Source of the DNA: Candidatus Iainarchaeum sp.
GTDB taxonomy: Archaea; Iainarchaeota; Iainarchaeia; Iainarchaeales; VGJJ01
Length of the DNA stretch: 64,000 nt
Assembly (NCBI GenBank): GCA_016198125.1
Contig: JACQJG010000018.1
Coordinates: forward strand, 2,843 to 66,842
Direction: 5' to 3'
Part shown: positions 5,139 to 27,057 of the stretch, piece by piece
Layout: every line of letters begins with the position of its first letter
Position numbering within the stretch: position 1 is the first letter of the stretch
Notes under the pieces: generated by a model
Told to the model about the DNA's origin: nothing
The model's database searches: none
Seen by the model: the letters and a program-made list of their open reading frames with translations, nothing else
Made by a program: the position numbers and the translations under genes

Positions 5139-6215
5139 TTAAAGTGTTTTTTGTTCTTTTTGTATTTCTCTTATTTTTTGCGTTGCAAGCCGTATCCCTT
5201 CGCGCAGCGTGCCTTCGCGGAACCCGGAAAGGGTAGTGCCATATCTCTTGAGGGATTTGAAGCACAAGGTCATGAGTGTTTTGTACGCCGTCCAGTGTTT
5301 GATACGCGCGTGGAGTAGCCGTGCGCGAAGGGTCTTAAGTTCTTGAGGGGTTAATGCGGCAAGCCCGGATTTTTCTTTTGCTTCTGTGTATTCCCTGAAC
5401 AGGTCCAGGGCGTTTTTTTGGATTTCTTCCAGCTCTATTTTATGGTTTTCAATGGTTTTGTGGTCTTGTAATGCTGCTTCGGGATATTGGCTGACGTATT
5501 CTACCCGTTCGCGTGCTTGGGCTGCTTTTTTTTCTGCTGTTTGCAGGCGCCACAAATTGCTTTCCATACGTTCTTTTATGATTTGAAAGTTGTGTTCGCG
5601 GATTTCAAGCGGGTCGCTGGACCAGCGCTGAAAGTATGTTTTAAGCATTACAAGTTTTTCTCCGCACGAACGGTATAATGCGGCAAGTTGCGTGTAAATC
5701 GTGTACAGTTCAAGATTGTGCGAGAAAAGGTCTGTGATGTTGGTGGAAGGATTGTTTTCTTTTGGGCGTTTCCGCAAGAGTGCGTTAACGTGTTCTTTTT
5801 GTTTATATATGCGGTCGTCTAATTTTTCCAGGTATTTTTGAAACACGCGGCCATAACGTGCGCCGATCTCCCTATAATAATCATCTGATTTCAATGGCCG
5901 CGGTTTTCTTTGGCGCCATTCATACAGCGTTTTTAAGCGCTTGTTTTTTTCTTTCCTTGCTGCCCAATCCAATGCACTGTCAATGTCCTGCAGAACATAT
6001 TCTTTTTTTGTGCGCTTGAATATTTTTCCGCGGGAGGCTTTGGTGCGCAGGCGTTCAGGGTTAAAAACGTATTTTACGCTGCGGCGCAGCGCGCGTAATT
6101 GCGCATCCACTGGCAGGGCATGGAATGTCCTGGACCCGGGAATAGGCTTTTTTTTTCTTTGCATGTACTGCTCATGCGTGCGGCCTATTTTAACGCGTGG
6201 GGCTTGGATTGGCAT
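5139..6215 (-). CDS. Hypothetical alpha-helical protein, co-operonic with the PEP-utilizer domain gene
   Basis: 358-aa ORF predicted to be helical with coiled-coil-like segments. It overlaps the upstream gene by 26 nt on the same strand. No recognisable motif. Confidence 0.5.
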   Translation of the reverse strand: MPIQAPRVKIGRTHEQYMQRKKKPIPGSRTFHALPVDAQLRALRRSVKYVFNPERLRTKASRGKIFKRTKKEYVLQDIDSALDWAARKEKNKRLKTLYEWRQRKPRPLKSDDYYREIGARYGRVFQKYLEKLDDRIYKQKEHVNALLRKRPKENNPSTNITDLFSHNLELYTIYTQLAALYRSCGEKLVMLKTYFQRWSSDPLEIREHNFQIIKERMESNLWRLQTAEKKAAQARERVEYVSQYPEAALQDHKTIENHKIELEEIQKNALDLFREYTEAKEKSGLAALTPQELKTLRARLLHARIKHWTAYKTLMTLCFKSLKRYGTTLSGFREGTLREGIRLATQKIREIQKEQKTL

Positions 6216-7527
6216 TTAAACGCTTTACAATTCCATTACGGGCGTCCACCTCAACCAGGTCCCAGTCGTGAAGGGCCTTGGTGGCCTGGGGCACTCCCAC
6301 AAGGGTTGGGATTTTGAATTCCCGTGCAAAGATTGCACTGTGCGTTAGCAATCCCCCCATTTCTATGATCATACCGTGGGCTTTGTGCATCCACGGCTCG
6401 TATTGTACAAGGGTTTCAGCAGCCACTAAAATATCCCCCGGGTTTACTTTTGAAATGTCTTCCAGGGAATGCACTACTTTTACAGGCCCAATGGCTTTTC
6501 CGGGGCATGCAATTTGGCCCGTAAACGTTTCCTGGTTGCTGGGTTTAAACGCGAAGCGTTCTTTGAGCGCATGATACTCTTCAATGGAAAGCGGTCGGAC
6601 TCCTTGAGGGGTTTTTACAAGTCCTTTGAATGTAAAGCGTTCTCCTAGTTTTTCAGGGCCTTGTCCTGTTTTCAGGGCGTATTCTATTTCTTTTGGCAGC
6701 AGTACTTCCCAGTACTTTTCATGCAACCCTATACGTTTCAATGCCTCTGTGAATAAAGGCCGCATGCAGTACAACGCGTAATTGTACGCATCAATGCGCT
6801 CGAACTTCAACCACAAAAACAGCTGTAATTCTTTTAACAAGGCATTCCGGCTTACTTTTATTTTTTTGGGCAGTGTAGCCGTTTTTCTTAATTGCATTAA
6901 ATCCGCTGGAGTAAGGGCCTTGCCGCGCAGCAGGCTGAGCCCATACCAGCCAAATGCGCGCGCCAGTCGCTTCAATGCATGTTCATCGCCTGGTCGCATC
7001 TTCAAGAGTTTTTCGTTGAGTCGTTCGGCTGACACCTTTCTCAAGGGACGGATTTCCTGGAAGTTTATTTTGGGTATTTTTTTAACGATGTAGGGTTCTA
7101 CTGCGTTCGCGGTTGGCAAGTAGGTCCACAGGAATCCAAGCGTTTCACGCATTCTTTCGTGAAATCGTTCCACTTCTCTTGAAAGCCGTTCATTGGAGTA
7201 CTTTTCAAAGGGTTTATGCCTGTTCTTATCGGAATAATCTTTTAGTTTTTTGATTGCTTTTTGGCATTTGGCATTCCATTTTTTCAGGAACCCTGCCGGG
7301 TTTTTTTCAATGAGGAGTTGGAGTTTCTTGCCTTTTTCTTTTTGGAAGTGGAATTCATCGTCAATGACCAGCATGAATTCTTGCGAGAATGCTATTCCAA
7401 AGTTTTTCTTGTAATTGGCAGTGTTTTCTGCTTCAAAAGATAATGCATTGAAATAAGTGCTGTTGGGCCAAGCCCCTAATTTTGGAAACTCTTCGGGGTT
7501 GAAACGTTGCAGGTCTTCTCCAGGCAT
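6190..7527 (-). CDS. PEP-utilizing enzyme mobile (phosphohistidine) domain protein with an unknown ~330-aa N-terminal domain
   Basis: The C-terminal ~90 aa carry the PEP-utilizer signature (ACPGKAIGPVKVV...GDILVAAETLVQYEPWMHKAHGMIIEMGGLLTHSAIFAREFKIPTLVGV). No ATP-grasp/PPDK_N motifs are visible upstream of it. Confidence 0.65.
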   Translation of the reverse strand: MPGEDLQRFNPEEFPKLGAWPNSTYFNALSFEAENTANYKKNFGIAFSQEFMLVIDDEFHFQKEKGKKLQLLIEKNPAGFLKKWNAKCQKAIKKLKDYSDKNRHKPFEKYSNERLSREVERFHERMRETLGFLWTYLPTANAVEPYIVKKIPKINFQEIRPLRKVSAERLNEKLLKMRPGDEHALKRLARAFGWYGLSLLRGKALTPADLMQLRKTATLPKKIKVSRNALLKELQLFLWLKFERIDAYNYALYCMRPLFTEALKRIGLHEKYWEVLLPKEIEYALKTGQGPEKLGERFTFKGLVKTPQGVRPLSIEEYHALKERFAFKPSNQETFTGQIACPGKAIGPVKVVHSLEDISKVNPGDILVAAETLVQYEPWMHKAHGMIIEMGGLLTHSAIFAREFKIPTLVGVPQATKALHDWDLVEVDARNGIVKRLNANPSPTR

Positions 7528-7552
7528 GTCAATTACTTGTGAGTTTGTGGAT

Positions 7553-8382
7553 TTAAATGGTGGCGATAGCCCCGTCTTGAGTGTTTATCCAAATCCTTTC
7601 CAGCACGCGTTCTTCATCAGGGTTATTTCCATGGATGGCGTGCAGGTATTGGTGGTTGTCGAACACAAGCAAATCGTTTTCTTTCCAATAATGCGTGAGT
7701 ACAAGGGATTGGTCTAATGCATAGTAAGGTTTTGAATGGCTTTGGCAGTGGTGCGTAAATCCGGCACAGGGGGCAAATCATTTTCCGCTGTAATGCGCGG
7801 AAAAATAATGGAGCGTCTAGGGAGCGTTATAACGTGGCTTTCTTTCCACGGGTGCTTTCTAATCAAGGGGGTGGGTTGGAGTTCCAGCGGTTTTCCAGCC
7901 GGGATCGTGTCCAGTTTGGACAGCGTGTCCATAAATGGGCTCAGCATGTTGAGTGCGTGCGTAGTGTCAGTTAATAGCGTTGGATTTTCACTTTTCCCGG
8001 GGTTAACACAATATAGTAAGACAAGGTGCGGGGGCAGCGCATGATGACTACCGTCCGTGTGCCAGTCAAAGAGAGGCTGGGCTGATGTGCCCTTACAAGA
8101 GGGGTATTCTTCTCGTACAAAGGAAAGGTATCCTCCACTGCTTCGTACAAGGGAAAAGGTTTTGGACTGCGCTGCATACTCAAAAAAGTCTTTGGGTTTG
8201 AAGTCCACTTTTAAAAGGTCAAACCCTTGTTTGTGCCAATCGTGTTTGCATAACCAGTCAAAAAATTCACGGGTTGAAAGAAGCGTGGAGTTGGGTGAAG
8301 GAATTGTTTCTCGGAGGGTGGTCTGGGTTTCTGTCCACATGAATTGCATTATTGTTTTATTTTTAAAGGCTTTTAGTTTCAT
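7553..8382 (-). pseudogene. TauD/TfdA-family Fe(II)/2-oxoglutarate dioxygenase, interrupted by a -1 frameshift at a C5 run (G5 on plus strand, 7768-7772)
   Basis: The frame from M (cat 8380-8382) carries WHTDGSHHALPPHLVLLYCVNPG...SENPTLL, which is TauD-like, and ends at a TAG at 7714-7716. The conserved C-terminus (HYWKENDLLVFDNHQYLHAIHG...ERIWINT) continues in another frame down to the TAA at 7553-7555. Adding one C at the C5 run joins the two frames. Confidence 0.55.
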
Positions 8383-8410
8383 TTTTATAGTACATTGTTT
8401 TATTTTTACC
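8383..8410. promoter_or_regulatory. Compact AT-rich divergent promoter region, with TATA-like elements on both strands about 25 bp from two divergent ATGs
   Basis: 28-bp spacer atttttatagtacattgttttatttttacc lies between the ATG at 8382 (minus) and the ATG at 8411 (plus). tttttata is centred about 25 bp upstream of the 8411 ATG, and taaaaata on the other strand about 23 bp upstream of 8382. This would fit leaderless archaeal transcripts. Confidence 0.3.
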
Positions 8411-8887
8411 ATGAAGCTTTCGGAGGCAGAGGTTAAGGCCATTGTGGACGCGGTAAAGAAGGAACCGCGCACCGTGCAGGACATTTCCCTGCTTATTGAC
8501 AAAAGCTGGGTGACTACTGAGAAGTACTTACAGGAACTTCACAATCAAACAGGCGCGATTAACCTTAAAACGTTCAGGCCTGGGACGCAGGCCGCGTTGA
8601 AAGTCGTGTATTATGTAAGCACAGAGGGGGGGCCTGGGGATGAAGTAAAGCAGGGCTTGGCCCAGCGCATTCTTCAAGGTAAATTCAAGCAGGACTTTGA
8701 CTTTTTGGACGTGTTTCAATTCATTCCGGATGCGCAGAAGAAAGCGTTCACGCGCGAGTCAGGGGGAAGAAGAACACATGACATTGGAAGAATTGGTCAA
8801 GAAAAAGGCTTCCAAGAGCCTGTATTATTTTTCTGGCAACCTGAGTTTTTTGTCCTTGGCCTACAAGGGCAGGAAATCAGTGGTTGA
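8411..8887 (+). CDS. Winged-helix (wHTH) regulator-like N-terminal domain protein; possibly the 5' part of a longer gene split by a frameshift
   Basis: From the ATG at 8411: MKLSEAEVKAIVDAVKKEPRTVQDISLLIDKSWVTTEKYLQELHNQTGAIN, which looks like a wHTH. The tail of this frame after about 8760 is low-complexity. Confidence 0.45.
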   Translation: MKLSEAEVKAIVDAVKKEPRTVQDISLLIDKSWVTTEKYLQELHNQTGAINLKTFRPGTQAALKVVYYVSTEGGPGDEVKQGLAQRILQGKFKQDFDFLDVFQFIPDAQKKAFTRESGGRRTHDIGRIGQEKGFQEPVLFFWQPEFFVLGLQGQEISG

Positions 8888-11053: not shown

Positions 11054-13579
11054 TCATGATTGAGCAAGGACTTGGACTTCTTTTTGCAGGGCTTGAACCT
11101 TGTCTGTTTTTTCCCACGTGAATTCAGGTTCATTTCTTCCAAAGTGTCCATACGCTGCCGTTTTTTTGTAAATGGGCCTGCGCAGGTCAAGGGCTTCAAT
11201 GATTCCTTTGGGGGTTAAGGGAAATATGTTGCGCACGGCTTCGGATAAAACTTCTTCGCTTACCTTTCCAGTGCCAAACGCGTTCACGTATACACTTACC
11301 GGTTGTGCCACTCCAATGGCGTAAGCCAATTGTATTTCGCATTTATCCGCGAGCTTGGCCGCTACAATGTTTTTGGCAATGTAGCGCGCCATGTAGCACG
11401 CGCTGCGGTCCACTTTGTTGGGCTCTTTTCCGGAATTGTGGCAAACAAATCCGTTGGCCGTATAAGTGTGTGAAAATGGAATATTCAAATCATATGTATG
11501 GGAAAAAGAGGGTATTCTATTTTGTAGTTTCGAATAATAGTGCCCCATATAATAGAGTTCTTGAAGTTTGAGGAATTCTGGTTCATTTTTAAAAAATTCT
11601 TCATACGTTTCTGTGAATTCTTTCAATTTTTCATAGGTTAATTCTTTTGTAGCTTTGCCTTCATTGCTTCTTGTAAATCGTGCAATTTTACATTTATCCA
11701 ATTTCTGTTCTTTTAGTGGGAGCTTTTTGAATAGATGAATAATTCTGTTTCGTTGGTTTGGAATGATTAACCAATCTTTTTTTCCAATGGACTTTCCTTC
11801 TAATATTTTTTGCTTTCGTGAAAGTTTGAATCCAATGTTTTCTAAAAATAAGTTACCACCTTTGCTTCCTTTGATGGTTAAGTCGTAGCGGTCATGTTTG
11901 GAGTTAATCAGCCTTCCTTTTATGTAAGCGGGTTTTTTTCCAACTTTAACAGTTCTTAGCACAGAAATGATGCCAAAGTTAAGCAAAAGTAACTGAGTTT
12001 GCTCAGCTAACTTTTTGCTTGTGGTGGTCAAATGGATTCTCTTTGTGTTCTTATTTCGTCCATCGATTCGAATGCTGCCATCCGTATCAAATAATCCGCG
12101 TAAAAACGCGGCGCAATTATTTTTACTGGCATTAAATATGGCTGTTGGAACGACTTTTTCATACGATTTTGCGTAATTGAGGCCCAAATTTTTCAAATAC
12201 GCCCTAAGCTCTACTCCTCCAATATAGGCCCAATGACCATAAACGTTGCCTTTATCGTTAAAGAGCCTAAAGAATACGTTTTGAACAATCGTTTTCATTT
12301 CGTTTTCGCATACGCATATTTTGAGGTGTCCTTTATCTGTGCAATCTCCGTCGCCGACCGATAAGCCCAGTAAGTAAGCATAATCTTCAGTTAATTTCTT
12401 TGGAAAAATATATTTTTTCTTTCTTCCTTCCGCTGTTCCTTCCCTATATGCATATTTAAACTTTGGAATTTCGTTGTCGCCAAAGAATCGGTTTTTTGTT
12501 TGAATAGCGAGCCAGTCGTTAGATACGAGTTTTTCAACCGGTTTCCAAACATAGTTTCCTGCGGGGTCTATGACCCGTATATTGTGATTGGGGGTTGCTT
12601 CTAATGAATACCCGTCATACGTTTGAATGATCTCGGTTTGCTTAATTCCGTTATCATACCAGTCTCCTGCTGGCATGGGGTGTACATCTGTTTTTACAAG
12701 CAAACTGTTTTCTCCAACTCTTTTACATTCGTCAAGTTTGATTAACCCTTTTTCAGTGTTAACAAGTGAATCGCCTGCCAGGCAAAACGCGCCTCCTCCG
12801 TGGGGCGCGTACCCTCCATACGTGTCCACAATGATTTTTCTTCCGGTTAAACCCGAGTCTGCCACAGGGCCTCCAATTTCAAATTTTCCTGTAGGGTTTA
12901 CAAAAATTTTTGTTTGCCCATCCATCATATTCCCGCAAACGGGTTCAATGACCTTCTCAATAAGGGTGTTTCGGATTTCCTCATGGTTTAACCCTTTTCG
13001 GTGGTGGGCGCTGACTACAACAGTGTCAATGCGTTTGGGTTTCCCGTTTTCGTATTCAATGGTGACTTGGCTTTTGCCATCCGGGTAAAGCCATTCAATT
13101 TCACCGCTTTTGCGTGCATGGGATAGTTTTTGCGTGAGTTTGTGTGCGAGGGTAATGGGTAATGGCATTAATTCAGGGGTTTCATTGCATGCAAATCCAA
13201 ACATCATGCCCTGGTCTCCCGCCCCTTCTTCTTTGTGCAGGCCTTCTCCTTCGTTGACTCCTTGTGCAATGTCAGGGGATTGTTCGGACACGGAAATCAG
13301 AACGGCACACGTGTCCGCGTCAAAGCCCATGTCCGTGTGAGTGTATCCTATTTCACGGATTGTATCGCGCACTACTTTCTGGAAGTCGATTCTGGCTTTT
13401 GTGGTGAGCTCTCCTGCCACCATTACAAAACCCGTTTTAATCAGGGTTTCAATTCCTGTACGCGAATAAGGGTCTTGTTTCAACACTGCGTCTACAATGG
13501 CATCGGATATTTGGTCGCACGTTTTGTCCGGATGGCCTTCGGTTACGGATTCGGATGTGAAATAGTATTTTCCCCTCAT
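11054..13579 (-). CDS. metK: S-adenosylmethionine synthetase, bacterial/eukaryotic type (MetK), with an in-frame ~450-aa intein
   Basis: From M (cat 13577-13579): [33 protein letters not shown]... and the MetK signatures. The P-loop GGGAF|[11 protein letters not shown] is split by a Cys...HN insertion. The exteins total about 391 aa. The longer ORF to 13783 adds a non-conserved basic leader. Confidence 0.9.
11435..12784 (-). mobile_element. Intein (Hint domain plus LAGLIDADG homing endonuclease) inserted in the metK P-loop
   Basis: It begins with CLAGDSLV after GGGAF and ends with FVCHN, directly followed by S ([11 protein letters not shown]). Block B is TPNHNIRV. There are two LAGLIDADG-type motifs, [12 protein letters not shown] and [14 protein letters not shown]. 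Confidence 0.85.
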
Positions 13580-13851
13580 GTTTGTCACAGGATCACCTTG
13601 TAAGGATGAACGCTGGAATGTTTTTAAGTTGATTTTGGTGCATCCAACGTTTTGATTTTTTTTTATACCGGCGCGCAAAGGAATTTTTTTTCCAACCCGC
13701 ATTCGGCTCTTAGGAATCGAACGGGTTCTCTGCTTTGGCGTTTTTTTCCTTTTTCGCGTTGTTCTTTGGCGTGGGCCATTCAAATGGCCCGCGCGCGTTG
13801 GACGCGTGCTTTCAAGCGTGCGTTTTGCCGGGCTTTTGGATCAATGATTTG

Positions 13852-14535: not shown

Positions 14536-15216
14536 CTAAAGGTTTTTCACGTAAAATCCAGGCTCTTCATGGTAGCCCATGGCTTGCGCGGCTTTTTCAT
14601 ATAATGCGCGCATGCGTGCTTGTACGCGTTCGATCACAGGGCCCGGGGCTTCGCCTGTTTTCACAGGAACTGCAGGATGCTTGTAATAATACAATGTTTC
14701 CGGCTTGCGTATTTTGACTTTTTTAAACCCGCACGCGCGTGCATGCTTTTCGGTTTCCTGTAAAAGGTAATTGGGCCAGGGCATTCCCAGGGCCGCATTC
14801 ATGCGCTGAACGTCTTTCACGTTTCCGCGCTTGCCTTGAAGGGCTTCTATGATCACTGCCTTTCGCTCGAATCCGAGCTTGGCTTGGACCAGCGCGCTGT
14901 CCCTGCGGACAGGAATTGGTTCTTCGGTTGAGCGGCCAGGGTAAATGCCCACACCTACACTTGACTCGTACGTGCTTCTTCCAATTCCCACTTCCCATTT
15001 CCCATACGCCAATGGATGCAAGGCAAACGTTTCAATGAACGGTTTTCCATGGGATAAAAGGGCTTCGCCTGCGGCAGTTTTAAAGTAATCTCGGATGAAC
15101 GCGCGCATGTACAGGTTTTTCATGCGGGGCAACAGCAAGCGGGGAGTAAGTTTTATGCGCGCGCGCTTGAGCCAAGATATGCGTTTGTGGATGTCCTCCT
15201 TTAATCTTGGTTTCAT
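14536..15216 (-). CDS. Hypothetical protein, GNAT-like fold suspected; paralog of 18992-19735
   Basis: 226 aa. It shares a clear block with the 18992 ORF (LGFERKAVIIEALQGKRG...ALGMPWPNYLLQETEKHARACGFKKVKIRKPETLYYYKHP). The Q/R-x-x-G-x-G/A and ...GFK arrangement resembles GNAT motif A. Confidence 0.5.
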   Translation of the reverse strand: MKPRLKEDIHKRISWLKRARIKLTPRLLLPRMKNLYMRAFIRDYFKTAAGEALLSHGKPFIETFALHPLAYGKWEVGIGRSTYESSVGVGIYPGRSTEEPIPVRRDSALVQAKLGFERKAVIIEALQGKRGNVKDVQRMNAALGMPWPNYLLQETEKHARACGFKKVKIRKPETLYYYKHPAVPVKTGEAPGPVIERVQARMRALYEKAAQAMGYHEEPGFYVKNL

Positions 15217-15314: not shown

Positions 15315-16016
15315 TCATTTTGGGCGTCTGAGGAGAATGGTTTTCTTAAACCCCCGTGTTTCGTACGCTCCCTTTCGCCCACGTAGAGTTAGCTTGATTC
15401 GCTCGCCAAATTTGGTTTTTTGTTTTCCAAGCATGGCTTGGCGGCGTGTAATTTGTTCGCGAAGTACGCCCATTAAATCGCCGTGTGTGACGATTACGAT
15501 GTGAACTTCCACTGGTCGGCCAGTATATTGCCCGGAAACGCGAACTCCAAATTCTTCAGCGTTTCTTCTAATGCGTGCCAGGACTTCAGCCGGCTGTTCT
15601 ACGATTGAGGTGTGCGTTTTTCCTTGGATCCAGCGTTGATTGAATTCTTCCAGGGATAAGTCTCCGTATAGGGCGTCGAACCATTTTTGGTCTCGTATTT
15701 TTCCGTACTTGAATTTTTCTTCTGCTCTTGAGGCTAGGACTTTGACGGGTAGTTTTTGGGTGCGAACGGCACGCATGAGCGAGCCGCGAATAAGGCTCTG
15801 GAACTGCATGTTACGGCCAACAGGGCTTGCATAAAATTTGACAATTTTTTGAGTTTTTGTTTTTCCCAATTCGTTAGCCAACGTTTTTCCAATCGCAGTT
15901 CCTTGGGTCCTGCCGCGTACTGTTAAATTACCGCTCGTAATACTGTCAAGGGGGCGTTCTCCGTGTCGAAAAATGTGAATTACAACTTTGGCGGGTTGTT
16001 CCGAGTTTTTAACCAT
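15315..16016 (-). CDS. Histidine phosphatase superfamily (phosphoglycerate mutase-like) protein
   Basis: VVIHIFRHGERP carries the RHG catalytic motif, and a conserved THGDLMG sits near the C-terminus. Confidence 0.6.
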   Translation of the reverse strand: MVKNSEQPAKVVIHIFRHGERPLDSITSGNLTVRGRTQGTAIGKTLANELGKTKTQKIVKFYASPVGRNMQFQSLIRGSLMRAVRTQKLPVKVLASRAEEKFKYGKIRDQKWFDALYGDLSLEEFNQRWIQGKTHTSIVEQPAEVLARIRRNAEEFGVRVSGQYTGRPVEVHIVIVTHGDLMGVLREQITRRQAMLGKQKTKFGERIKLTLRGRKGAYETRGFKKTILLRRPK

Positions 16017-16025
16017 TCGAAAACC

Positions 16026-17426
16026 TTAACTTAATTTTCGGATGACCCCTTTTTCAGCATCCACTTCAATGCGTTCTCCGCTTTTAAGAATGGAGGTCGC
16101 GTTGTTGGTCCCGGTAATACATGCAATTCCGATTTCGCGGCTGACAATGGCCGCATGCGAGGTGATTCCTCCACGGTCTGTAATAATGGCTTTTGCTTTT
16201 TTCATTAAAGGAACAAAATCTGGAGTTGTTTCAGGGGCAACCAAAATGTCTCCTTCTTCGAAATGCTTAAAATCATCTGGTGAAATGATCACCTTTGCGG
16301 TTCCTTGTATAATTCCACCTTTGGAAGCAACCGTTCCTTTTAGTTCGCTGGCCTGAATTGTTTGCGTTCCAACTATTTCATTTAGTAATTCTTGAAGTTC
16401 TTCGCCTGAAAAAAGGTGTTCTGTTCCGCTTTCATCCAAGAAACTACCCCACTTGGGTTTTCGTTCGGGCAGTTTATTGGGAAGTTTTCTTCCTTGTTTT
16501 AAAAATGAAAGAATTTCTCGGCTGGAAAGATAGCAAAACTCTTCGTAGGTTAAACCGTTTTCTTTGGCGATTTCTTCCATTCTTGGACGGGACAAAAAAC
16601 GACTTTGGCGGTTACTTCGGCGCAGTGCGTCCGCCAAAACGATAAAACCGCCATCAAGCGAAAAAGGGGTAAGGTTTTTTTGGGTTTTGGAACTTTTTTT
16701 TGTGCAATCCTTCCTTTTTCAAGGATTTTTTGTATTTCTTCCAAGCATTTTTCCTCGGAATACGCTTCTCCGCCCCAATGGTGGGTTCCAAACCATTCAA
16801 ACGTATTCACGTGTTTTTTTATCGCTGTTGCAATGGATTTATTCTCTTTGACAAAATGAGCGGTTACATTGGATGGCTGAATTTTTGGAAAATTTTTTTG
16901 AATCAACCGCGCAATTTTTTTAACGCCAAACGATTGTTCTTCAAGCCAAGTTGGTTTTCGCAGTGCTTCAACTTGTCTAACAATTTCCTTTGAGTCAAGT
17001 GTTGGATACTTTTTGAAAATATATGCTTCCAGTTCATCTGCCAATTGAAGGCTTAGCCACCAAAAACCCGCCAAGTCTTGATAGGTGTCAAATAAAGCTT
17101 CCAAGTAATCGATTTTTCCGTATTTTTTCTTTAAAATATTCAAGTGCCTCTGCTTGGTTTCTGCACCTATTTCTTCAACTTTTTTTTATGAATTCTTTGA
17201 TGTGATTGTTGTTGTCCATTTCTTTTATGGCGTTTTTCATGGCTTCCTTGTCAGTCATCTTTGTCAGGCTGTTTCCGTCCAAAAACAGCATGGAGTTAAA
17301 ACGCACATTAGAAAAAGTGGTTTTCACGCTTTTAACCGTATTCCAAGGCGACCAAAAACAACCCGAAAGTACTGGTTGAACCCAGCGGCCATAATTAATC
17401 CATTCGTTTTTGTTGAAGCGAGGCAT
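16026..17426 (-). pseudogene. Degraded paralog of the 6190-7527 PEP-utilizer domain gene, in three ORF fragments
   Basis: Fragment 17175-17426 (MPRFNKNEW...) aligns with the N-terminus of the 445-aa paralog. Fragment 16550-17143 aligns with its middle (HWGGEAYS vs FGWYGLSLL). Fragment 16026-16637 carries the PEP-utilizer mobile domain (GDILVAPETTPDFVPLMKKAKAIITDRGGITSHAAIVSREIGIACI). The frame breaks coincide with a T8 run (17181-17188) and an A6 run (16594-16599). Confidence 0.55.
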
Positions 17427-17907: not shown

Positions 17908-17988
17908 GCACTCCCAAAAGGCTTTTCTTGGATTTAAGGGTTTTTGTATTTTTTTTGACGCAAGGTTAATACATTCTTTGGGTGTATT

Positions 17989-18210
17989 TTGCTACGGAAG
18001 TGGTTTTTCTTGAACCGCATGCTTATACTGGTATTAGTGGCTGGTTTGGTTCTTGTGCTCGGAGGAAGCGCAGTATACGCAGTTTCTCCCACACCGCAGG
18101 CTTTGCCGTCCGATGGAATAATCTTTGGGAAGGCCCTTCAGTCTTTGGACCCGGGCACCGGCCAAATATACCCGGATGGTCATTGGGCGTCAAAAAAACG
18201 CGCGCACTAG
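17989..18210 (+). CDS. Possible small membrane or secreted protein (73 aa)
   Basis: An N-terminal hydrophobic helix LILVLVAGLVLVLGG. It overlaps the alternative long ORF 17982-18971 in another frame, so it is uncertain. Confidence 0.25.
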   Translation: MLRKWFFLNRMLILVLVAGLVLVLGGSAVYAVSPTPQALPSDGIIFGKALQSLDPGTGQIYPDGHWASKKRAH

Positions 18211-18227
18211 AGTATAGGGCTAAATAC

Positions 18228-18971
18228 ATGGGGCCCGTTTTTCATTACATGCCAGCGCGCTTTTTTCCATGGAAGCGTTTTTTTAACGTGGTCTTGTTGC
18301 CAGCGCGCACTGTGCGCGAGTATGCGCGCGCTCAAAAACTCATTGCCCAGCAAGAAAAAGTATTGAACCTTTTACGCACAAAAAAGTCTGTTTCTTTTTT
18401 TCGCGTGAAGGCCCGTAAAATGGAATTGATGGAAATCATTGAACGTAGGAAAAAGGCAGAGCACGCATTTAGATCTGCGGCCAAAAGACTGCATGACCAC
18501 TTGGTGTCCAAGGGCGTTCCGCGTTTTTTTATTCCTGCAGGACTTTTTGTGCCGTTCACGCTTCCGGAAGCCGTGCTGCACTTGGCATTTTTGTATAATA
18601 GGCACCCAAGAAAGCAGGAAGAACCGCTTTACATTAGAAGGAAGATACTGAAGGGGCTTTCTGCGCACGACCGTCATTTTGAAGGAAAGAAAGCCGTTGG
18701 GTGGTGTGCACTGCGCGTGACCAACGCGCGCTATGAGGTTGAGTTGCACTGGAATTCTTGGCCTGAATTCAAGGATTACGTGAAATACTTTGAAAACATA
18801 CGGGCATCTCAGGTTGTGGTCAGGGAAGGAAAAGAGGTCTACATCAAAATTTCAGGAAGGTTTCCGGCAAATGGCATTAAGGAATATGCCGCCGCCGTGG
18901 ACGTAGTTGGCGCTATTCCAGTTCGGGTGGGGCAGTACATGGACAAGTATGGCAAAAGGCACAGGTATTAA
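18228..18971 (+). CDS. Hypothetical protein
   Basis: 247 aa from the internal M (MGPVFHY...) of the 329-aa ORF. The upstream 82 codons overlap the small ORF above and look non-coding. Confidence 0.4.
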   Translation: MGPVFHYMPARFFPWKRFFNVVLLPARTVREYARAQKLIAQQEKVLNLLRTKKSVSFFRVKARKMELMEIIERRKKAEHAFRSAAKRLHDHLVSKGVPRFFIPAGLFVPFTLPEAVLHLAFLYNRHPRKQEEPLYIRRKILKGLSAHDRHFEGKKAVGWCALRVTNARYEVELHWNSWPEFKDYVKYFENIRASQVVVREGKEVYIKISGRFPANGIKEYAAAVDVVGAIPVRVGQYMDKYGKRHRY

Positions 18972-18991: not shown

Positions 18992-19735
18992 TTAGAGCGT
19001 TCTGATAAAGAACGCGCCTTTCTTTTTGTATCCCATGGTTTTTGCAACCAACCCATAAAGGGCGTGCATGCTGGCGCGGATGGCTTTGACTTTTCTTTCT
19101 TTTTCTTCTTTGTCCTTTGCAGAAGCAAGCGGCCACTGGTAATAGTGCAAGGATTCAGGCGTGCGGATTTTTATTGTTTTAAACCCGTTTTTTCGTGCGT
19201 GTTCTTCAAGTTCGCGCAGCAATCTGTTTGCACAGGGTTCTCCGAGTGCATGGTTGAGGGCTCTTATTTCATTTTGGGGGCGCTGGCCTTGCATGGCTTC
19301 TACAATGATTGTTTTGCGTTCAAAGCCCAATTGCAGTACGAAGTGAGGGAAGCTGTGATTTTCGTGCGTGATGCGCAGTCCCACTAAAGACTCGTTTCCA
19401 GAAGCCCCTAACGCAATTTCATACGAGGGGCCTTCTTTTGTGTGGAGGGTCTTTTTTTGGTGGGTGGCCAAAAACGTTGCACCATAGCGAATAATGTTCT
19501 CAATATCTGCAGTTCGGTACGCGGAAGGCGGTGTAACATGCCTTAAACGTGGAGCTCCCACTTCCAATGCTTTAGCCCGGCCATATTCCAGAAAGTAGTG
19601 TAAAACGCTTCCAGGGTGTTTGTGTGCAAGGAAGTCTGCGCGCTTCCATGCAATGGATTCTGCAGCTTCTCTGGGGGAAAATGGTTTTCCCTGGCGGCTT
19701 GAGTGGCGGTAGATTGCAAGGGGCCTGCGCGGCAT
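18992..19735 (-). CDS. Hypothetical protein, GNAT-like fold suspected; paralog of 14536-15216
   Basis: Conserved block LGFERKTIIVEAMQGQRPQNEIRALNHALGEPCANRLLRELEEHARKNGFKTIKIRTPESLHYYQWP. Confidence 0.5.
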   Translation of the reverse strand: MPRRPLAIYRHSSRQGKPFSPREAAESIAWKRADFLAHKHPGSVLHYFLEYGRAKALEVGAPRLRHVTPPSAYRTADIENIIRYGATFLATHQKKTLHTKEGPSYEIALGASGNESLVGLRITHENHSFPHFVLQLGFERKTIIVEAMQGQRPQNEIRALNHALGEPCANRLLRELEEHARKNGFKTIKIRTPESLHYYQWPLASAKDKEEKERKVKAIRASMHALYGLVAKTMGYKKKGAFFIRTL

Positions 19736-19797: not shown

Positions 19798-20694
19798 ATG
19801 TCTTTTCACACGTGCATGCCTTCGGTGATGAAACCTGGGTGGTTGAAAATCCGTCCGCCGGATTTGAAACCGTTTGAGGAAACGCGTTCGGTTATTTCTT
19901 CTTTGAATTTGCACACGATTTGTGTGGAAGGCCATTGCCCCAATCAAAGCGAGTGCTGGTCCAATAAGACTGCGTCATTCATGGTGTTGGGGAAAACGTG
20001 CACGCGGGGATGCAAGTTTTGTGCAGTAAGCACTGCGTTGAAGGGCGATGTCCTTGATTCGCTGGAACCTGCGCGTTTGGGAGCGGCAGTAAAACGGTTG
20101 GGCTTGGAGTATGTGGTGATTACTTCCGTGGACCGCGATGACTTGGAAGACCAGGGGGCTGGACACATTGCACAGTGCATTCGTGAAGTGCGCCGCCAGT
20201 CTTCAAGCACGGTAGTGGAAGCATTGATCCCGGATTTTAGGGGCAGTGAAGAATGCCTGCAAACCGTGCTTCAATCCAACCCCCACGTGCTTTCCCATAA
20301 CCTTGAAACAGTAAAGCGCTTGCAGTCGTATGCCCGGGACCGCCGGGCTTCGTACGAGCAGTCTTTGGGGGTTTTAAAAAATGCAAAAAAACAGTGCCCA
20401 TCAATGTACACCAAGTCCGCGCTCATGTTGGGCTTGGGCGAAACGCAGGAGGAAGTAATACAGTCCATGAAAGACTTGCGGGTCATGAACGTGGATTTTT
20501 TGTCTTTGGGGCAATACTTGCGTCCTTCTGAATGGCATGTGCCTGTTCATGAATACGTGTCTCCGGATCAGTTCAAATGGTATGAAGAGAAGGGGTTTGA
20601 GTTGGGTTTCAAGTTTGTGGCCGCAGGGCCTTTTGTGCGTTCTTCTTATCGTGCAGGAGAATACTTTGTTGGCAACATGGTTTCGCGTGTTTGA
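19798..20694 (+). CDS. lipA: Lipoyl synthase
   Basis: WLKIRPP...CVEGHCPNQSECW plus the radical-SAM CTRGCKFC motif, and a conserved C-terminal RSSY. Confidence 0.85.
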   Translation: MSFHTCMPSVMKPGWLKIRPPDLKPFEETRSVISSLNLHTICVEGHCPNQSECWSNKTASFMVLGKTCTRGCKFCAVSTALKGDVLDSLEPARLGAAVKRLGLEYVVITSVDRDDLEDQGAGHIAQCIREVRRQSSSTVVEALIPDFRGSEECLQTVLQSNPHVLSHNLETVKRLQSYARDRRASYEQSLGVLKNAKKQCPSMYTKSALMLGLGETQEEVIQSMKDLRVMNVDFLSLGQYLRPSEWHVPVHEYVSPDQFKWYEEKGFELGFKFVAAGPFVRSSYRAGEYFVGNMVSRV

Positions 20695-20721
20695 GCGCAT
20701 TCTTTTAAATGCGTAAATGCT

Positions 20722-21936
20722 TTGGATGAGGGTATGCCTTTCAAGTCTGCTGCGTCGTTTGAAGTGAAATTCTTGCAAGTGTTAAATGAGAAGGGCGAAG
20801 TGGATTCAAAGTTGGAGCCCAGGATTTCTGGGGAGCGCTTGAAACAGTTTTATGAGTGGATGGTGCTTGCCCGTGTTTTTGATGAAAAGGCCATTGCCTT
20901 GCAGAGGCAGGGGCGCATTGGAACGTATGCTTCCGTAAGAGGCCAGGAGGCATGCCAGGTGGGTTCTGCGTGCCTGTTGAACGATTTGGATTGGGTGTTT
21001 CCTGCATTCAGGGAGAATGCCGCGCTCATTGTGCGCAAAACTCCGTTGAAAAATCTTTTGTTGTACTGGGGGGGCGATGAACGCGGCAGTGTTCCCCCGC
21101 TCGGAGTAAGGAATTTTCCGGTGGCCATTCCGGTTTCCTCGCAAATTCCTCATGCGGTTGGAGCAGCGTGGGCATGCAGGCTGCGCAATGAGAAAAATGT
21201 TTCATTGGTGTACTTTGGAGATGGAGCCACTTCAAGGGGCGATTTTCACGAGGCATTGAATTTTGCCGGCGTGTTCAAGATTCCAGTCATTTTCCTGTGC
21301 CAGAATAACCAGTACGCAATTTCGGTTCCGCGTTCAAGGCAATCGGCAGCGCAAACGCTGGCCCAAAAGGCGGTTGCGTATGGAATAGAGGGCATTCAAG
21401 TGGATGGAAATGACCTTCTTGCAGTGTATGTGAGTGTGCAGGAGGCCTTGGAGCGTGCGCGTGCAGGTAAAGGTCCAACGCTGATTGAGTGTTTTACGTA
21501 TCGTTTGGGGGATCATACCACTTCGGATGATGCCAAGCGCTACCGTACTGAAAGTGAAGTGGAGGAATGGAAGAAGAAGGACCCCCTTGCGCGTTTTGAA
21601 CTGTACTTGGCTTCCAAGAAGCTTTTTTCAAAGGAGTATCAGTCAGAGGTGTTGGAGCGTGCCCAGGCGTTGGTAGACCAGGCAGTACAGGAATACGAGT
21701 CTGTTCCGCTTCCTGCGGTAAGCGATTTGTTCAACTATGTTGCGGCACAATTGGATGCAAATGTTTCCATGCAAAAAGCCCGCTATTTGGAAGGGGTGGG
21801 CGCCCAGGATGTAGTACCTGTAACTCCGGTAGTTGCACCCCTCGTGAAAGGCCCAGCGAATCAATCTTCAAAGCCAGGCAAGAAGCGTGTTTCGCTTGAG
21901 GGATCTTCGAAGGCAGACGAGGTGCCGGACTTTTAG
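20722..21936 (+). CDS. pdhA: 2-oxoacid dehydrogenase E1 component alpha subunit (TPP-dependent)
   Basis: 404 aa with an E1-alpha TPP-binding fold, including YRLGDHTTSDD and GDGATSRGDFHEALNFA. Confidence 0.85.
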   Translation: MDEGMPFKSAASFEVKFLQVLNEKGEVDSKLEPRISGERLKQFYEWMVLARVFDEKAIALQRQGRIGTYASVRGQEACQVGSACLLNDLDWVFPAFRENAALIVRKTPLKNLLLYWGGDERGSVPPLGVRNFPVAIPVSSQIPHAVGAAWACRLRNEKNVSLVYFGDGATSRGDFHEALNFAGVFKIPVIFLCQNNQYAISVPRSRQSAAQTLAQKAVAYGIEGIQVDGNDLLAVYVSVQEALERARAGKGPTLIECFTYRLGDHTTSDDAKRYRTESEVEEWKKKDPLARFELYLASKKLFSKEYQSEVLERAQALVDQAVQEYESVPLPAVSDLFNYVAAQLDANVSMQKARYLEGVGAQDVVPVTPVVAPLVKGPANQSSKPGKKRVSLEGSSKADEVPDF

Positions 21937-21941
21937 GGGTT

Positions 21942-22925
21942 TTGCTTATGAGTGTCATGAACATGGTGCAGGCCATTAATGCAGCGTTGGGGCAGGAAAT
22001 GCAGGCGGATGCCCGTGTCATTGTGCTGGGAGAGGATGTTGGAAGGGATGGGGGCGTGTTCCGCGTTACAGAGGGATTGTTGGAAAAGTTTGGCGAGAAC
22101 AGGGTTATTGACACTCCGCTTTCAGAGTTGGGCATTGTGGGGGCTTCCATTGGCCTTGCAGTGAACGGCATGCGTCCAATTGCAGAAATTCAATTTGATG
22201 GTTTCACGTATGCAGGTTTGGACCAGCTCATTGACCATGCTTCAAGGATTCGCACGCGTTCCAGGGGCGCGTACTCTTGTCCGTTGGTAGTGCGTTTTCC
22301 CTGCGGGGGAGGCATTCACGCGCCCGAACATCATTCTGAATCTCCTGAAACATACTTTGTTCACACTCCTGGGTTGAAAGTGGTGTGCCCTTCCACTCCC
22401 GGCGATGCAAAAGGATTGCTTGCTTCTTGCGTTCAGGACCCGGACCCTTGTATTTTCATGGAACCCAAGCGCATTTACCGTGCCGTTAAAGAGGAAGTGA
22501 ACGAGGAGCGTTACACGATTCCTTTTGGAGTTGCAAAGGGCGTGCGCGAAGGAGAAGATGTTACATTAATTGCGTGGGGGGCCATGGTGCGCGAGTGCGT
22601 GAAAGCCGCAGACCAATTGGAAGCAGAACACGTTTCGTGTGAAGTATTGGATGTGCGCTCGCTTAAACCCTTGGACGTGAATGCCATTGTAAACAGCGTG
22701 AAGAAAACCGGCCGCGTGCTGGTGGTACATGAGGCTCCAAAAACCCTTGGGTTGGGCGCGGAAATTGTTGCACTCATCCAGGAACATGCATTTCTTTCCT
22801 TGGAAGCCCCGGTTGGGCGCGTGACAGGGTTTGACGTGGCCATGCCCTTGTACAAACTGGAAGAGGCCTACCTTCCCAATGTGAATCGCATTGTGGAAGG
22901 CGTGCGCAGAACGGTTTTGTTTTAA
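21942..22925 (+). CDS. pdhB: 2-oxoacid dehydrogenase E1 component beta subunit
   Basis: 327 aa with a transketolase-like pyrimidine-binding and C-terminal domain (VIVLGEDVGRDGGVFRVT, IDTPLSELGIVG). Confidence 0.85.
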   Translation: MLMSVMNMVQAINAALGQEMQADARVIVLGEDVGRDGGVFRVTEGLLEKFGENRVIDTPLSELGIVGASIGLAVNGMRPIAEIQFDGFTYAGLDQLIDHASRIRTRSRGAYSCPLVVRFPCGGGIHAPEHHSESPETYFVHTPGLKVVCPSTPGDAKGLLASCVQDPDPCIFMEPKRIYRAVKEEVNEERYTIPFGVAKGVREGEDVTLIAWGAMVRECVKAADQLEAEHVSCEVLDVRSLKPLDVNAIVNSVKKTGRVLVVHEAPKTLGLGAEIVALIQEHAFLSLEAPVGRVTGFDVAMPLYKLEEAYLPNVNRIVEGVRRTVLF

Positions 22926-22988
22926 TGCGCGCAGGCATTGGTTTTAAATGGATTGGGGGTGTTATTTTTTGGTTTTGAGGGACCGTGC

Positions 22989-23864
22989 ATGCGCGTGCAA
23001 ACCTTTTTAATTTTGTTTTTAATGGGAATCCTGCTTGCCCCTTTTGTGTTTGGCCATGAAACAGGCGAGGAGGAGCCTGTGGATGTTCACGCGGAAAACG
23101 TGCCCGTGGAAGCTTCTTTCACGGATTCCGCGCAGTTGGCTGAATTTCTTTCCGCTCAATCCTTGAATGTAGCTGGCATTGCAGCCCTTATCCTGTTGGG
23201 CGCGGTTGCATATGCCGTTCGCGTGCGCCCCCTTGGGGGGCATGCAAAGAAAATGCTTTTTTTAGTCATCCTGGTCACGTCCCTGTTGACCACTGCATAT
23301 TTGGCGGGTTCCACGCTGTACTTGAATGCCGCGTCCTTTACCCAGGGGCCCGTGCACTGGCACGCGGACTTTGAGGTGTGGAATTGCAGTGAAAAGTTGG
23401 ATTTGAAGGACCCTGAAGGGTTTTCCAACAAGGAAGGGGAAGAGCTCGTGCACGAGCATGGAGATGACCGCGTGCACGTGGAGGGCGCGTTGTTGGATGA
23501 AACCCAGGGCCAGCTTGGTTACTTTTTTAAGGCCGTGGGCGCTGAATGGAATGACGAAAGATTCGGGTATCCAACAAACCAGGGGGACGTGGTGCTTCCT
23601 GCAAAGGGAACGTGCAATGGGAGGCCCGCAGAACTCCAATTCTTCTTGTACCGCATTGTAAACCCGGGAAATGCAAGGCAATGGGTGTACAAGCAGTACA
23701 AGCTTTCCCCGCATGACGCGTATGAAACGGTCATGGCGCCTTATGGAAACGTTCCTCCAGGGGACTGCTTGATCGTTGAATTTGATGCTGTCAAGGAGCG
23801 TTCCGAACACGTGTGCTCGTCGTACGCGCATGCCATTCAAAGGGGGGAGTTAAATGGCCGTTGA
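22989..23864 (+). CDS. Membrane protein with a His/Cys-rich extracytoplasmic domain, embedded in the dehydrogenase cluster
   Basis: A signal-peptide-like start (MRVQTFLILFLMGILLAPFVFG) and two hydrophobic helices. A soluble domain follows with HWHADFEVWNC, EHGDDRVH and several Cys. The longer ORF begins at 22938. Confidence 0.45.
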   Translation: MRVQTFLILFLMGILLAPFVFGHETGEEEPVDVHAENVPVEASFTDSAQLAEFLSAQSLNVAGIAALILLGAVAYAVRVRPLGGHAKKMLFLVILVTSLLTTAYLAGSTLYLNAASFTQGPVHWHADFEVWNCSEKLDLKDPEGFSNKEGEELVHEHGDDRVHVEGALLDETQGQLGYFFKAVGAEWNDERFGYPTNQGDVVLPAKGTCNGRPAELQFFLYRIVNPGNARQWVYKQYKLSPHDAYETVMAPYGNVPPGDCLIVEFDAVKERSEHVCSSYAHAIQRGELNGR

Positions 23865-24564
23865 AGCGTATCTTCCCACCATTGCAACGGTTGTTGTAAC
23901 CGCGCTCATCGATTCCATTAACCCGTGCGCGATTGGCGTGCTCATCCTCATGATCTCCATCCTCCTTGGAAAGCGCAAGTCCATGCACGACATGCTCTTA
24001 TACGGGGGGCTGTACATTTTCGCGGTTTTCCTGACCTACCTGCTGGCAGGCATTGGCCTTACATACGCGTTGAGCACCATTCCATTGTTTGTAACCGAGT
24101 ACTTGTCCATTGGGGTGGGGCTGCTCATTGTTTTTGCCGGCCTGTTGGAGGTAAAGGATTTTTTCTGGTATGGAAAAGGCTTTTCCCTGCAAATCCCTGC
24201 AAGGTTTGCAGCCAAGATCGACCGGTACGCGCAGAACGTGACCATTCCCGGGGTCATTTTGGTGGGCATGTTCGTGGCAGCCGTGGAATTGCCGTGCACG
24301 GGCGCCCCTTATCTTGCAATCATAACGTTGCTGTCCCAGTACTTTGACTTTACCGCGCTCTTGTTATTGGTCTTGTACAACGTCATATTCGTTTTGCCGC
24401 TCATATTCATTTTGCTGGCCGTGGCCGCGGGGAAAAGACTTTCAACGTTCAAGAAGTGGAAGCAGGATAATCGGGGAACGATGCGCTTGTTTATCGGGTT
24501 GATGTTGATTGGCATGGGGTGGTTGTTGATGTTGATTGCCAACGGAACCATTAACTTTGGGTGA
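23854..24564 (+). CDS. ccdA: CcdA/DsbD-family thiol-disulfide transporter (cytochrome c biogenesis transmembrane protein)
   Basis: Six predicted TM segments. The two conserved cysteines sit in INPCAIGVL (TM1) and ELPCTGAPY (TM4), typical of DsbD-beta/CcdA. Confidence 0.75.
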   Translation: MAVEAYLPTIATVVVTALIDSINPCAIGVLILMISILLGKRKSMHDMLLYGGLYIFAVFLTYLLAGIGLTYALSTIPLFVTEYLSIGVGLLIVFAGLLEVKDFFWYGKGFSLQIPARFAAKIDRYAQNVTIPGVILVGMFVAAVELPCTGAPYLAIITLLSQYFDFTALLLLVLYNVIFVLPLIFILLAVAAGKRLSTFKKWKQDNRGTMRLFIGLMLIGMGWLLMLIANGTINFG

Positions 24565-24578
24565 GGCGTTAAAACAGC

Positions 24579-24920
24579 ATGCAGGAAAAAAAAGGCCGTA
24601 AAAAGGGGCAGGTGCGAATGCCCGCCCGCGCACGCGGTGCAGGGAATGTGAACGTGCACATCGTTAAACGCAAAGGCCATTTGGAAAGGTTTGATGAACG
24701 CAAGGTGTATGCTTCCTGTTATGAAGCGTGCCTTTCCGCGCAAATCCCCAATTCCACAGCTGAACACATTTGCGGGCTTGCCTCGGACGACGTTAAAAAG
24801 TGGGTGTTGACCCAGCGCCAAGTGAATTCACACCAAATTTTCCTGCGCGTAGCAGAATTCTTGCGCAAACACCACAAGGATGTGGCGTTCATGTATGAAA
24901 CCCACCGCGACGTTTCATGA
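24579..24920 (+). CDS. ATP-cone domain protein
   Basis: VHIVKRKGHLERFDERKVYASCYEA matches the ATP-cone start (V-x-KRDG-x-x-E-x-FD). The gene ends 4 nt inside the E2 gene start. The true start may be the internal M (24618). Confidence 0.55.
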   Translation: MQEKKGRKKGQVRMPARARGAGNVNVHIVKRKGHLERFDERKVYASCYEACLSAQIPNSTAEHICGLASDDVKKWVLTQRQVNSHQIFLRVAEFLRKHHKDVAFMYETHRDVS

Positions 24921-26293: not shown

Positions 26294-26299
26294 TTTTTC

Positions 26300-27040
26300 A
26301 TGCCGGTTTTTGGAAAAGGCCGTGTCCGAAGGCCAAAGTTCTATGGAAAACCCGAACTTGAAGGGGTAAAGATTGAACTCTACAGGGAAAGCGTAAAGGC
26401 CGGCGCGGCTTCTGGCAGAAGGTACAGGCGAAGCAGAGGGTACAAGTATGAGATCACTCCCTTGTCGGGGGTTGAAAGATTCCTGCATTTCAATGTCACA
26501 CACTGGGTTTTAAAACGCTACAAGAAGGTAAAACGTCCTGTGAACGTGCTTGACTGGGGGTGCGGCCAAGGCACAGCTATCACTGAGTTGGTGAAAAGGC
26601 TTCCAAGCAAGGTTAACGCGTACGGGTATTCAAAAGATTTTTACCCTTCGTGGACTGAAAACCCGCATGTTAAATTCATCCAGGAAACCCACGACCAAGT
26701 GCCGAGGTTTTTTAAAAAAATTCCATTGGATCTTATCCTTTCGCTTGCAGGCCTGCACCATTTGCAGGCAAGCATGAGCCGCGGGGTTTCTCTTGCCGTG
26801 ATAGAGAATAGAAGGAGATGGTTGAAGGAATACAAAAAATACATTTTGAGGCTTGCAGAGCGGCTGGCTCCCGGGGGTGTGCTGGTGACAAGTTTTATTG
26901 GCCTGCCCAGCCATGTGGACGAATTCGCGTCTTCGTTCAATCCCAAAAAAGACAGGGTTCGGGCACGCGTCTTGCATTGTTCTTATTATCCAGGCGCCCC
27001 TGCGGGCGTGGACAATATTTTCATGCTTGAAAAGATTTAA
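26300..27040 (+). CDS. Class I SAM-dependent methyltransferase
   Basis: Motif I is VLDWGCGQGTAITELV. Confidence 0.55.
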   Translation: MPVFGKGRVRRPKFYGKPELEGVKIELYRESVKAGAASGRRYRRSRGYKYEITPLSGVERFLHFNVTHWVLKRYKKVKRPVNVLDWGCGQGTAITELVKRLPSKVNAYGYSKDFYPSWTENPHVKFIQETHDQVPRFFKKIPLDLILSLAGLHHLQASMSRGVSLAVIENRRRWLKEYKKYILRLAERLAPGGVLVTSFIGLPSHVDEFASSFNPKKDRVRARVLHCSYYPGAPAGVDNIFMLEKI

Positions 27041-27057
27041 ATTTTTTTTTGAAAGCA

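Follow-up and report, generated by a model that had tools for sequence, protein, structure and literature searches.

A short rifampin phosphotransferase-like protein of a Diapherotrites archaeon, probably the acceptor-specific half of a split small-molecule dikinase

Two adjacent genes of the minus strand, here called gene A and gene B, were analyzed in a stretch of 64,000 nucleotides (the window) taken from a 69.8-kb contig of a metagenome-assembled genome (MAG) of a Candidatus Diapherotrites (DPANN) archaeon. Both open reading frames (ORFs) were found as given in the initial annotation, with 445 amino acids (aa) for gene A and 358 aa for gene B, and are followed on the same strand by a typical archaeal gene string in the order Rpp21, S19e, a PDCD5-like dsDNA-binding protein, L39e, L31e, eIF6, LX, prefoldin and FtsY. 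Gene A, which carries a swivel-type phosphohistidine domain of the kind found in phosphoenolpyruvate (PEP) synthase, is the main subject of this analysis. The features of the locus and the contigs that carry relatives of gene A are listed in Table 1.

Table 1. Features of the gene A locus and contexts of the relatives of gene A. Positions without a contig name refer to the window.
Feature	Position or contig	Strand	Basis or context
Gene A	6190..7527	-	445 aa; MBI4043884.1, HY393_03690; 'hypothetical protein' in NCBI, not pseudogene
Gene A N-terminal domain, mostly helical, aa 1-332	6532..7527	-	DSSP on the model, Foldseek, profile alignment
Gene A C-terminal PEP-utilizers swivel phosphohistidine domain, aa 333-445	6193..6531	-	PF00391; beta-rich in the model
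WLKFERID motif, W239-D246	6790..6813	-	translation and alignments
His396 codon, predicted phospho-carrier	6340..6342	-	invariant in the family; GGLLTH context
TATA-like TTTAAAT, putative promoter	7551..7557	-	sequence reading; centre ~27 nt 5' of the gene A ATG
Gene B	5139..6215	-	MBI4043883.1, HY393_03685; 358 aa in the longest ORF, 341 aa from 6164; basic, pI about 10
TATA-like TTAAAATA, putative gene B promoter	6186..6193	-	sequence reading; overlaps the gene A stop codon, ~26 nt 5' of the ATG at 6164
Copy 2, gene A paralog, three ORF pieces, two frameshifts	16026..17426	-	family profile match; 467 aa when reconstructed
Gene of the histidine phosphatase superfamily (His_Phos_1) with an RHG motif, 9 nt 3' of copy 2	15315..16016	-	PF00300, E 3.3e-5; NCBI 'histidine phosphatase family protein'
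P0002, closest homolog of gene A	L001 (= L008), Candidatus Saccharibacteria		directly after a 1036-aa protein with PPDK_N and two swivel domains; then three swivel paralogs and two His_Phos_1 genes
P0005	L003		convergent PPDK_N gene abutting
P0007	L004, 10001-17076		five swivel-domain paralogs and one truncated helical-only paralog around a stand-alone 311-aa PPDK_N gene
P0008	L011		at least four tandem paralogs
P0016	L013		two tandem paralogs
P0013	L010		single; PPDK_N not found within 8 kb
P0014	L012		single; PPDK_N not found within 8 kb; within an aromatic amino-acid biosynthesis operon

The C-terminal part of gene A (aa 362-432) matched Pfam PF00391 with an E-value of 7.2e-19 and 67.6 bits (cut-off 23.1), confirming the mobile histidine domain noted in the initial annotation. 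The segment GGLLTHSAIFAREF of this domain was located at 6316-6357, and the chain stops 13 residues beyond the domain. The conserved histidine sought in alignments was found, His396 being invariant in an alignment of 14 family sequences together with P161, R244, E280 and R297 of the N-terminal domain. Searches with Pfam and NCBIfam found neither the ATP-grasp domain PPDK_N (PF01326) nor PEP-utilizers_C in gene A, in agreement with the earlier view that the protein has no ATP-grasp or PEP-binding domain; a PPDK_N/ATP-grasp match of the N-terminus, which the initial annotation had regarded as the finding that would speak against it, was not obtained. The NCBIfam PRK08296 models, which we take to represent the HpeH/CreH/PpsA group considered below, matched the swivel region of gene A only.

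The swivel domain is homologous to that of PEP synthase and pyruvate phosphate dikinase (PPDK), and presumably supports the same His-mediated phosphotransfer chemistry. On the other hand, gene A has neither the ATP-grasp domain nor the C-terminal PEP/pyruvate-binding TIM barrel of those enzymes, and its swivel domain is C-terminal. The top NCBIfam scores for gene A came from PEP synthase models (E 7e-25), as would be expected if gene A were an ordinary divergent PEP synthase, PPDK or phosphotransferase system enzyme I. However, these matches were limited to aa 311-436 and reached 87 bits against cut-offs of 598-740, and enzyme I models covered aa 357-435 only, with 24-29 bits against cut-offs above 340. 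As PPDK_N and PEP-utilizers_C were not found, the protein is about half the length of such enzymes and its structure fits rifampin phosphotransferase (RPH) far better, we regard this identity as hardly credible.

The family defined by the N-terminal domain of gene A is very rare. When aa 1-340 served as the query of a word-indexed search, gene A itself and one relative (P0002, 33% identity) were returned from 5.8 billion proteins, and an exhaustive HMMER search over 1.84 billion cluster representatives with a two-sequence N-domain profile returned 15 proteins at E <= 1e-3, five of them at E <= 1e-30. Fourteen of these 15 are 427-516 aa long with the swivel domain at the end, the remaining one (P0010) being a 256-aa fragment. 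An additional homolog search with a 20-sequence N-domain profile yielded two more proteins only. A scan for related loci gave none in metagenomes and, in genomes, only the Saccharibacteria contig that carries P0002; the open-access literature searched yielded no paper on the family in DPANN archaea.

An AlphaFold2 model of gene A built on the 14-sequence family alignment (pLDDT 91, pTM 0.87) showed that aa 1-330 form a helix-dominated domain and that the swivel domain is rich in beta structure. When this model was compared with the PDB using Foldseek, the six top matches were all Listeria RPH (RPH-Lm), with E-values of 5.7e-13 to 1.3e-10 and a TMq of 0.48-0.51 in the first four. PPDK, PEP synthase, pyruvate kinase and enzyme I matched the model by the swivel domain only (TMq about 0.2), and the enzyme I N-terminal domain gave a TMq of 0.18. 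In RPH-Lm, residues 1-314 form the ATP-grasp domain, 327-754 the rifampin-binding domain and 767-865 the swivel domain (Stogios et al., PMC4844700). In a profile search of PDB sequences, positions 221-460 of the family profile aligned to RPH-Lm residues 624-864 (E 2e-32); positions 221-340 of this alignment, which lie within the N-domain, correspond to RPH 624-750. Remoter family members were collinear with the RPH, PigC and PRK06241 models far upstream of the swivel domain, residues 138-502 of P0015 aligning to PigC 503-880. The predicted fold thus identifies the N-terminal domain, described as unknown in the initial annotation, as corresponding to the rifampin-binding domain of RPH and to the HpeH substrate-binding domain, and the likeness to RPH suggested there was upheld by both the Foldseek matches and the profile alignment. 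Arg666 and Glu667 of RPH are critical to the second phosphotransfer, and even distant clades retain the Arg-Glu...Lys block (PMC4844700). In gene A, the WLKFERID residues K241 and R244 align to R666 and K670 of RPH-Lm, both of them catalytic in that second transfer.

RPH-Lm (PDB 5HV1, 5FBS, 5FBT and 5FBU) was the best whole-protein structural match to gene A, with which it shares the C-terminal swivel His domain. However, its 867 aa form one chain, with the ATP-grasp domain that gene A lacks at the N-terminus, its rifampin-binding domain has 428 aa compared with about 330 aa in gene A, and the sequence identity is 13-15%. The likeness is no pointer to rifamycins as the substrate, the rifampin-contacting residues being outside the comparison. 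In the HpeHI system the ATP-grasp protein is HpeI and the rifampin-binding-like and swivel domains are in HpeH, and CreHI and PpsAB have the same build (PMC12167813). Like HpeH, CreH and PpsA, gene A combines a substrate-binding domain of the RPH type with a swivel His domain at the C-terminus of the same chain, an ATP-grasp protein on a separate polypeptide being the proposed source of the phosphate; the homologs of gene A lie beside stand-alone or fused PPDK_N genes. It differs from them in length (HpeH has about 640 aa, 71 kDa), in the absence from its subfamily of the T/S of the T/SxxGGxxxH motif, in that an ATP-grasp gene was not found within the 64-kb window, and in its distribution, the family having been seen not in an aromatic-catabolism cluster but in a Saccharibacteria MAG, in metagenome contigs of unassigned origin and in a DPANN archaeon. 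A further likeness was seen with the prodigiosin ligases PigC, RedH and HapC, as P0015 and P0012 are collinear with the last 340-380 positions (central and swivel domains) of the PigC model; the NCBIfam models of PigC and RedH, however, have about 880 positions, the family matches are far below their cut-offs, and gene A itself matches the swivel region of PigC only. The RPH superfamily and its two-component subfamily are already known. What differs here is a very short substrate-binding domain, extreme rarity, occurrence in at least one DPANN archaeon and one Saccharibacteria genome, often as paralog arrays around one ATP-grasp gene, and an orphan state in this archaeon.

Because its model best matches the rifampin-binding and swivel domains of RPH, gene A is assigned as an HpeH/PpsA-type component of a split RPH-like dikinase. 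We therefore consider it probable that gene A is the 'H-type', acceptor-specific half of a small-molecule dikinase of this kind, composed of a helical substrate-binding domain and a swivel phosphohistidine domain and charged by an ATP-grasp protein encoded elsewhere. The observations made for gene A comprise domain homology, the predicted fold, the conserved histidine, the conserved basic motif and the association of homologs with ATP-grasp genes; trans-phosphorylation of gene A, its acceptor and an ATP-grasp partner in the source genome are proposed by analogy with RPH, HpeHI, CreHI and PpsAB. By the same analogy, the separately encoded PPDK_N protein would move the beta-phosphate of ATP to His396, the charged swivel domain would dock on the helical domain of gene A, and the basic WLKFERID residues K241 and R244, together with E280 and R297, may help to pass the phosphate to a small-molecule acceptor.

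The genomic context of the relatives matches the two-component dikinases described in 2025. ATP-grasp (PPDK_N) genes adjoin relatives of gene A in three of nine other contig contexts (L001, L003 and L004), and tandem paralog arrays were found in four of the nine (L001, L004, L011 and L013). Four other members of the gene A subfamily were looked up, of which two had an adjacent PPDK_N gene and two lay on contigs of 2.3 and 4.2 kb; the contigs of P0004 (L002, 2.3 kb), P0006 (4.2 kb) and P0011 (L009, 2.3 kb) are too short to inform on context. ATP-grasp genes, tandem paralogs and possibly histidine phosphatases are the neighbours that recur in the family. The 1036-aa protein of the Saccharibacteria contig (L001 6878-9988) has one PPDK_N ATP-grasp domain and swivel domains at about 590-690 and 961-1030, and is followed by four tandem swivel paralogs. 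P0014, a distant family member of 457 aa (L012 8001-9374; GCA_040960315.1, 679-kb contig), is flanked by an aminotransferase gene on one side and a prephenate dehydrogenase gene on the other, in an operon that further includes aroD, aroE, an aroK-aroA fusion, aroC, pheA, a beta-eliminating lyase gene and a gene for a class-Ib aminoacyl-tRNA synthetase (Tyr or Trp). This placement hints at an aromatic or phenolic substrate, by analogy with HpeH, CreH and PpsA.

Several observations weigh against the assignment of gene A to a split dikinase. PPDK_N was not found in the six frames of the 64-kb window (best hidden Markov model E-value 5; tblastn with two PPDK_N queries), so that the partner must be encoded elsewhere or gene A must use another phosphoryl donor. 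Relatives in L010 and L012 occur singly without a nearby ATP-grasp gene. RPH Glu667 has no aligned acidic residue in gene A, E243 being one position off, and the T/S missing from the gene A subfamily is the residue at -8 of the motif noted for HpeH-type proteins. The N-domain is about 100 aa shorter than the rifampin-binding domain. A profile of the N-domain only, searched against PDB sequences, gave no meaningful match and did not reach RPH; the homology of this domain rests on structure prediction and on alignments running out of the swivel domain. Finally, copy 2 and a TauD-like gene nearby are both frameshifted, indicating gene decay in the region.

Copy 2 had been described as a second, decayed copy of gene A. 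Its three pieces (17175-17426, 16550-17143 and 16026-16637) match the family profile one after another, at positions 2-103, 83-235 and 249-463, in two frames and with frameshifts near runs of eight A (17180-17187) and six T (16594-16599), and NCBI annotates them as separate hypothetical proteins. The swivel domain is intact in the last piece (PF00391, E 6.3e-28), with the sequence GGITSH, a His codon at 16155-16157 and the segment GGITSHAAIVSREIG at 16128-16172. The frameshifts were considered as possible assembly errors. This was ruled out, since two independent Logan assemblies from different runs (SRR12113383 and SRR12113384) were 100% identical to the window across both sites; the frameshifts therefore belong to the organism and not to one assembly. 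Decay and retention of the mobile domain were thus confirmed. A duplication of gene A was not: copy 2 is only 28% identical to gene A, and its best match is P0011 (34% identity), so it is a distant paralog rather than a recent duplicate. These results indicate that two frameshifts inactivated copy 2, a paralog in its own right within the gene A family.

Immediately upstream of gene A, a TauD/TfdA-family dioxygenase gene (7556-8502, minus strand) is also broken by a frameshift, the ORF 7714-8502 matching PF02668 positions 88-143 and the last 39 positions (229-267) lying in another frame at 7556-7711. With two genes decaying nearby, the copy 2 lesions recurring in independent assemblies and no ATP-grasp gene found in 64 kb, gene A could itself be a stranded relic which lost its ATP-grasp partner from a reduced DPANN genome and is becoming a pseudogene like copy 2. 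However, gene A is an unbroken ORF of 445 codons that keeps every invariant family residue (H396, R244, E280, R297 and P161) and gives a confidently folded model; a variant from another assembly, with the single conservative substitution A184S, is likewise intact; and the search for an ATP-grasp gene was confined to the 64-kb window. Gene A is also preceded by the box TTTAAAT, a putative archaeal promoter from which an mRNA with a short leader or none would be made. We therefore regard the relic explanation as unlikely. Across the window, the interval from -36 to -7 of ORF starts shows a modest enrichment in TATA-like hexamers, and the stop codon of the TauD-like gene falls within the TTTAAAT box.

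Since single family members without a nearby ATP-grasp gene occur (L010 and L012), an ATP-grasp-independent role is conceivable. Gene A might carry out phospho-exchange from a metabolite to an acceptor, as HpeH alone transfers phosphate from 4-phosphoacetophenone to acetovanillone (PMC12167813), or might act as a phosphohistidine carrier or regulator reset by a His_Phos_1 phosphatase. Such phosphatase genes adjoin copy 2 and also come after the Saccharibacteria swivel array (L001 15234-15878 and 16017-16967), making His_Phos_1 a possible functional associate of the swivel-family genes, a lead from two loci. A specific kinship of the window and L001 His_Phos_1 proteins was not supported (pairwise E-values 0.007 and 3), the adjacency is confined to these two loci, and a PPDK_N gene adjoins half of the four other subfamily members, the other two of which lie on the short contigs mentioned above. 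We consider a role without an ATP-grasp protein, too, to be unlikely. A fragment downstream of P0004 in L002 (…FVARHSKKP…ISEAGVQLAKE), which has no Pfam match, may be a third His_Phos_1 case.

The region of copy 2 and its His_Phos_1 gene is flanked by two paralogous hypothetical proteins of 226 and 247 aa (14536-15216 and 18992-19735, both minus strand; 37% identity over 185 aa), between which a 329-aa ORF without matches lies on the plus strand (17982-18971). None of these three neighbours had a Pfam match, and the 226-aa protein had no PDB sequence match.

In the initial annotation gene B was proposed to form a two-gene module with gene A, based on an overlap of 26 nt. In their longest-ORF forms the two genes do overlap by 26 nt (6190-6215), and they are adjacent on the same strand, as expected if gene B were a new partner such as an adaptor or a substitute ATP-binding half. 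The overlap, however, requires the first ATG of gene B. A start at 6164 leaves a 25-nt gap behind the gene A stop codon, and this start is used both by NCBI and in the gene call of the 6.4-kb Logan contig L005; the 358-aa form is on record from another Logan contig (P0020). The ATG at 6164 stands behind TTAAAATA in the same geometry as the gene A ATG behind TTTAAAT. The probable start of gene B is thus 6164, downstream of a TATA-like box of its own, and with this start there is no overlap.

A single-sequence AlphaFold model of gene B (mean pLDDT 67) contained helices only, with long ones over aa 93-340 behind a basic, low-confidence N-terminus of about 90 residues, which agrees with the earlier description of an all-helical protein. 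Gene B had no homolog but itself among the 5.8 billion proteins, no Pfam, NCBIfam or PDB sequence match, and nothing below E 0.09 for its model in Foldseek. Nothing similar was found by tblastn in seven related loci (L001-L004 and L009-L011), so that the co-occurrence check failed. The possibility that gene B is a hidden ATP-grasp protein or a decayed family paralog was rejected, as the protein is all-helical without a significant Foldseek match and its hhalign probability to the family N-domain was 0.3%, compared with 77% for a positive control, the truncated L004 paralog of 265 aa without a swivel domain. Moreover, gene B is as tightly linked to the downstream Rpp21 gene (13-nt gap) as to gene A. 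Taken together, these results make a module of genes A and B very improbable; we regard gene B as a lineage-specific orphan, basic and helical, that stands outside the gene A system and probably belongs to the downstream string of Rpp21 and ribosomal-protein genes. In this case adjacency and apparent overlap were not a sign of a module.

Other features of the window were recorded. The AT skew of the plus strand is strongly negative across most of it (minimum -0.40), the minus strand carries the majority of its genes, which are rich in A and in lysine, and S19e, the PDCD5-like protein and several other housekeeping proteins have long K/E-rich extensions in their longest-ORF forms. A 2-oxoacid dehydrogenase complex cluster, notable for a reduced DPANN genome, is found at 19798-28111; E1 alpha and beta were identified by Pfam in the matching Logan contig L006, in which 19798-20694 is called as a radical-SAM protein, and a putative E2, lipoyl synthase and lipoate-protein ligase are assigned from position and sequence only. 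A 909-aa ORF (11054-13783, minus strand) encodes an S-adenosylmethionine synthetase with the MetK-type Pfam domains PF00438, PF02772 and PF02773, and is split by an intein with a LAGLIDADG homing-endonuclease domain. We take this synthetase to be of the bacterial/eukaryotic type and not the usual archaeal one, which would be unusual in an archaeon.

The assignment of gene A gives proteins annotated as 'hypothetical' in a DPANN archaeon and in a Saccharibacteria genome a testable role as the substrate-specific halves of RPH-like dikinases, and adds to the recently recognised two-component dikinase group of HpeHI, CreHI and PpsAB a very rare form of much smaller size, found as tandem arrays around a single ATP-grasp gene and also as orphans without a nearby one. 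A bolder extension, which we hold to be distinctly unlikely, is that in ultra-small symbionts one ATP-grasp 'charger' serves a whole array of short modules of the H type whose helical domains diverge, giving multiplexed small-molecule phosphorylation, while an unlinked or unrelated donor charges orphans like gene A in trans and His_Phos_1 resets the phosphohistidine or processes the product. The symbionts concerned would be at least one Saccharibacteria MAG, one DPANN archaeon and the sources of unassigned contigs with similar arrays, and multiplexing, if true, could serve, for example, the detoxification of host or competitor metabolites, or scavenging. Activity of the orphans, if real, would raise the question of how an enzyme with a swivel His but no ATP-binding domain of its own is charged, a question that bears on small-molecule phosphorylation, detoxification and activation in reduced symbionts.

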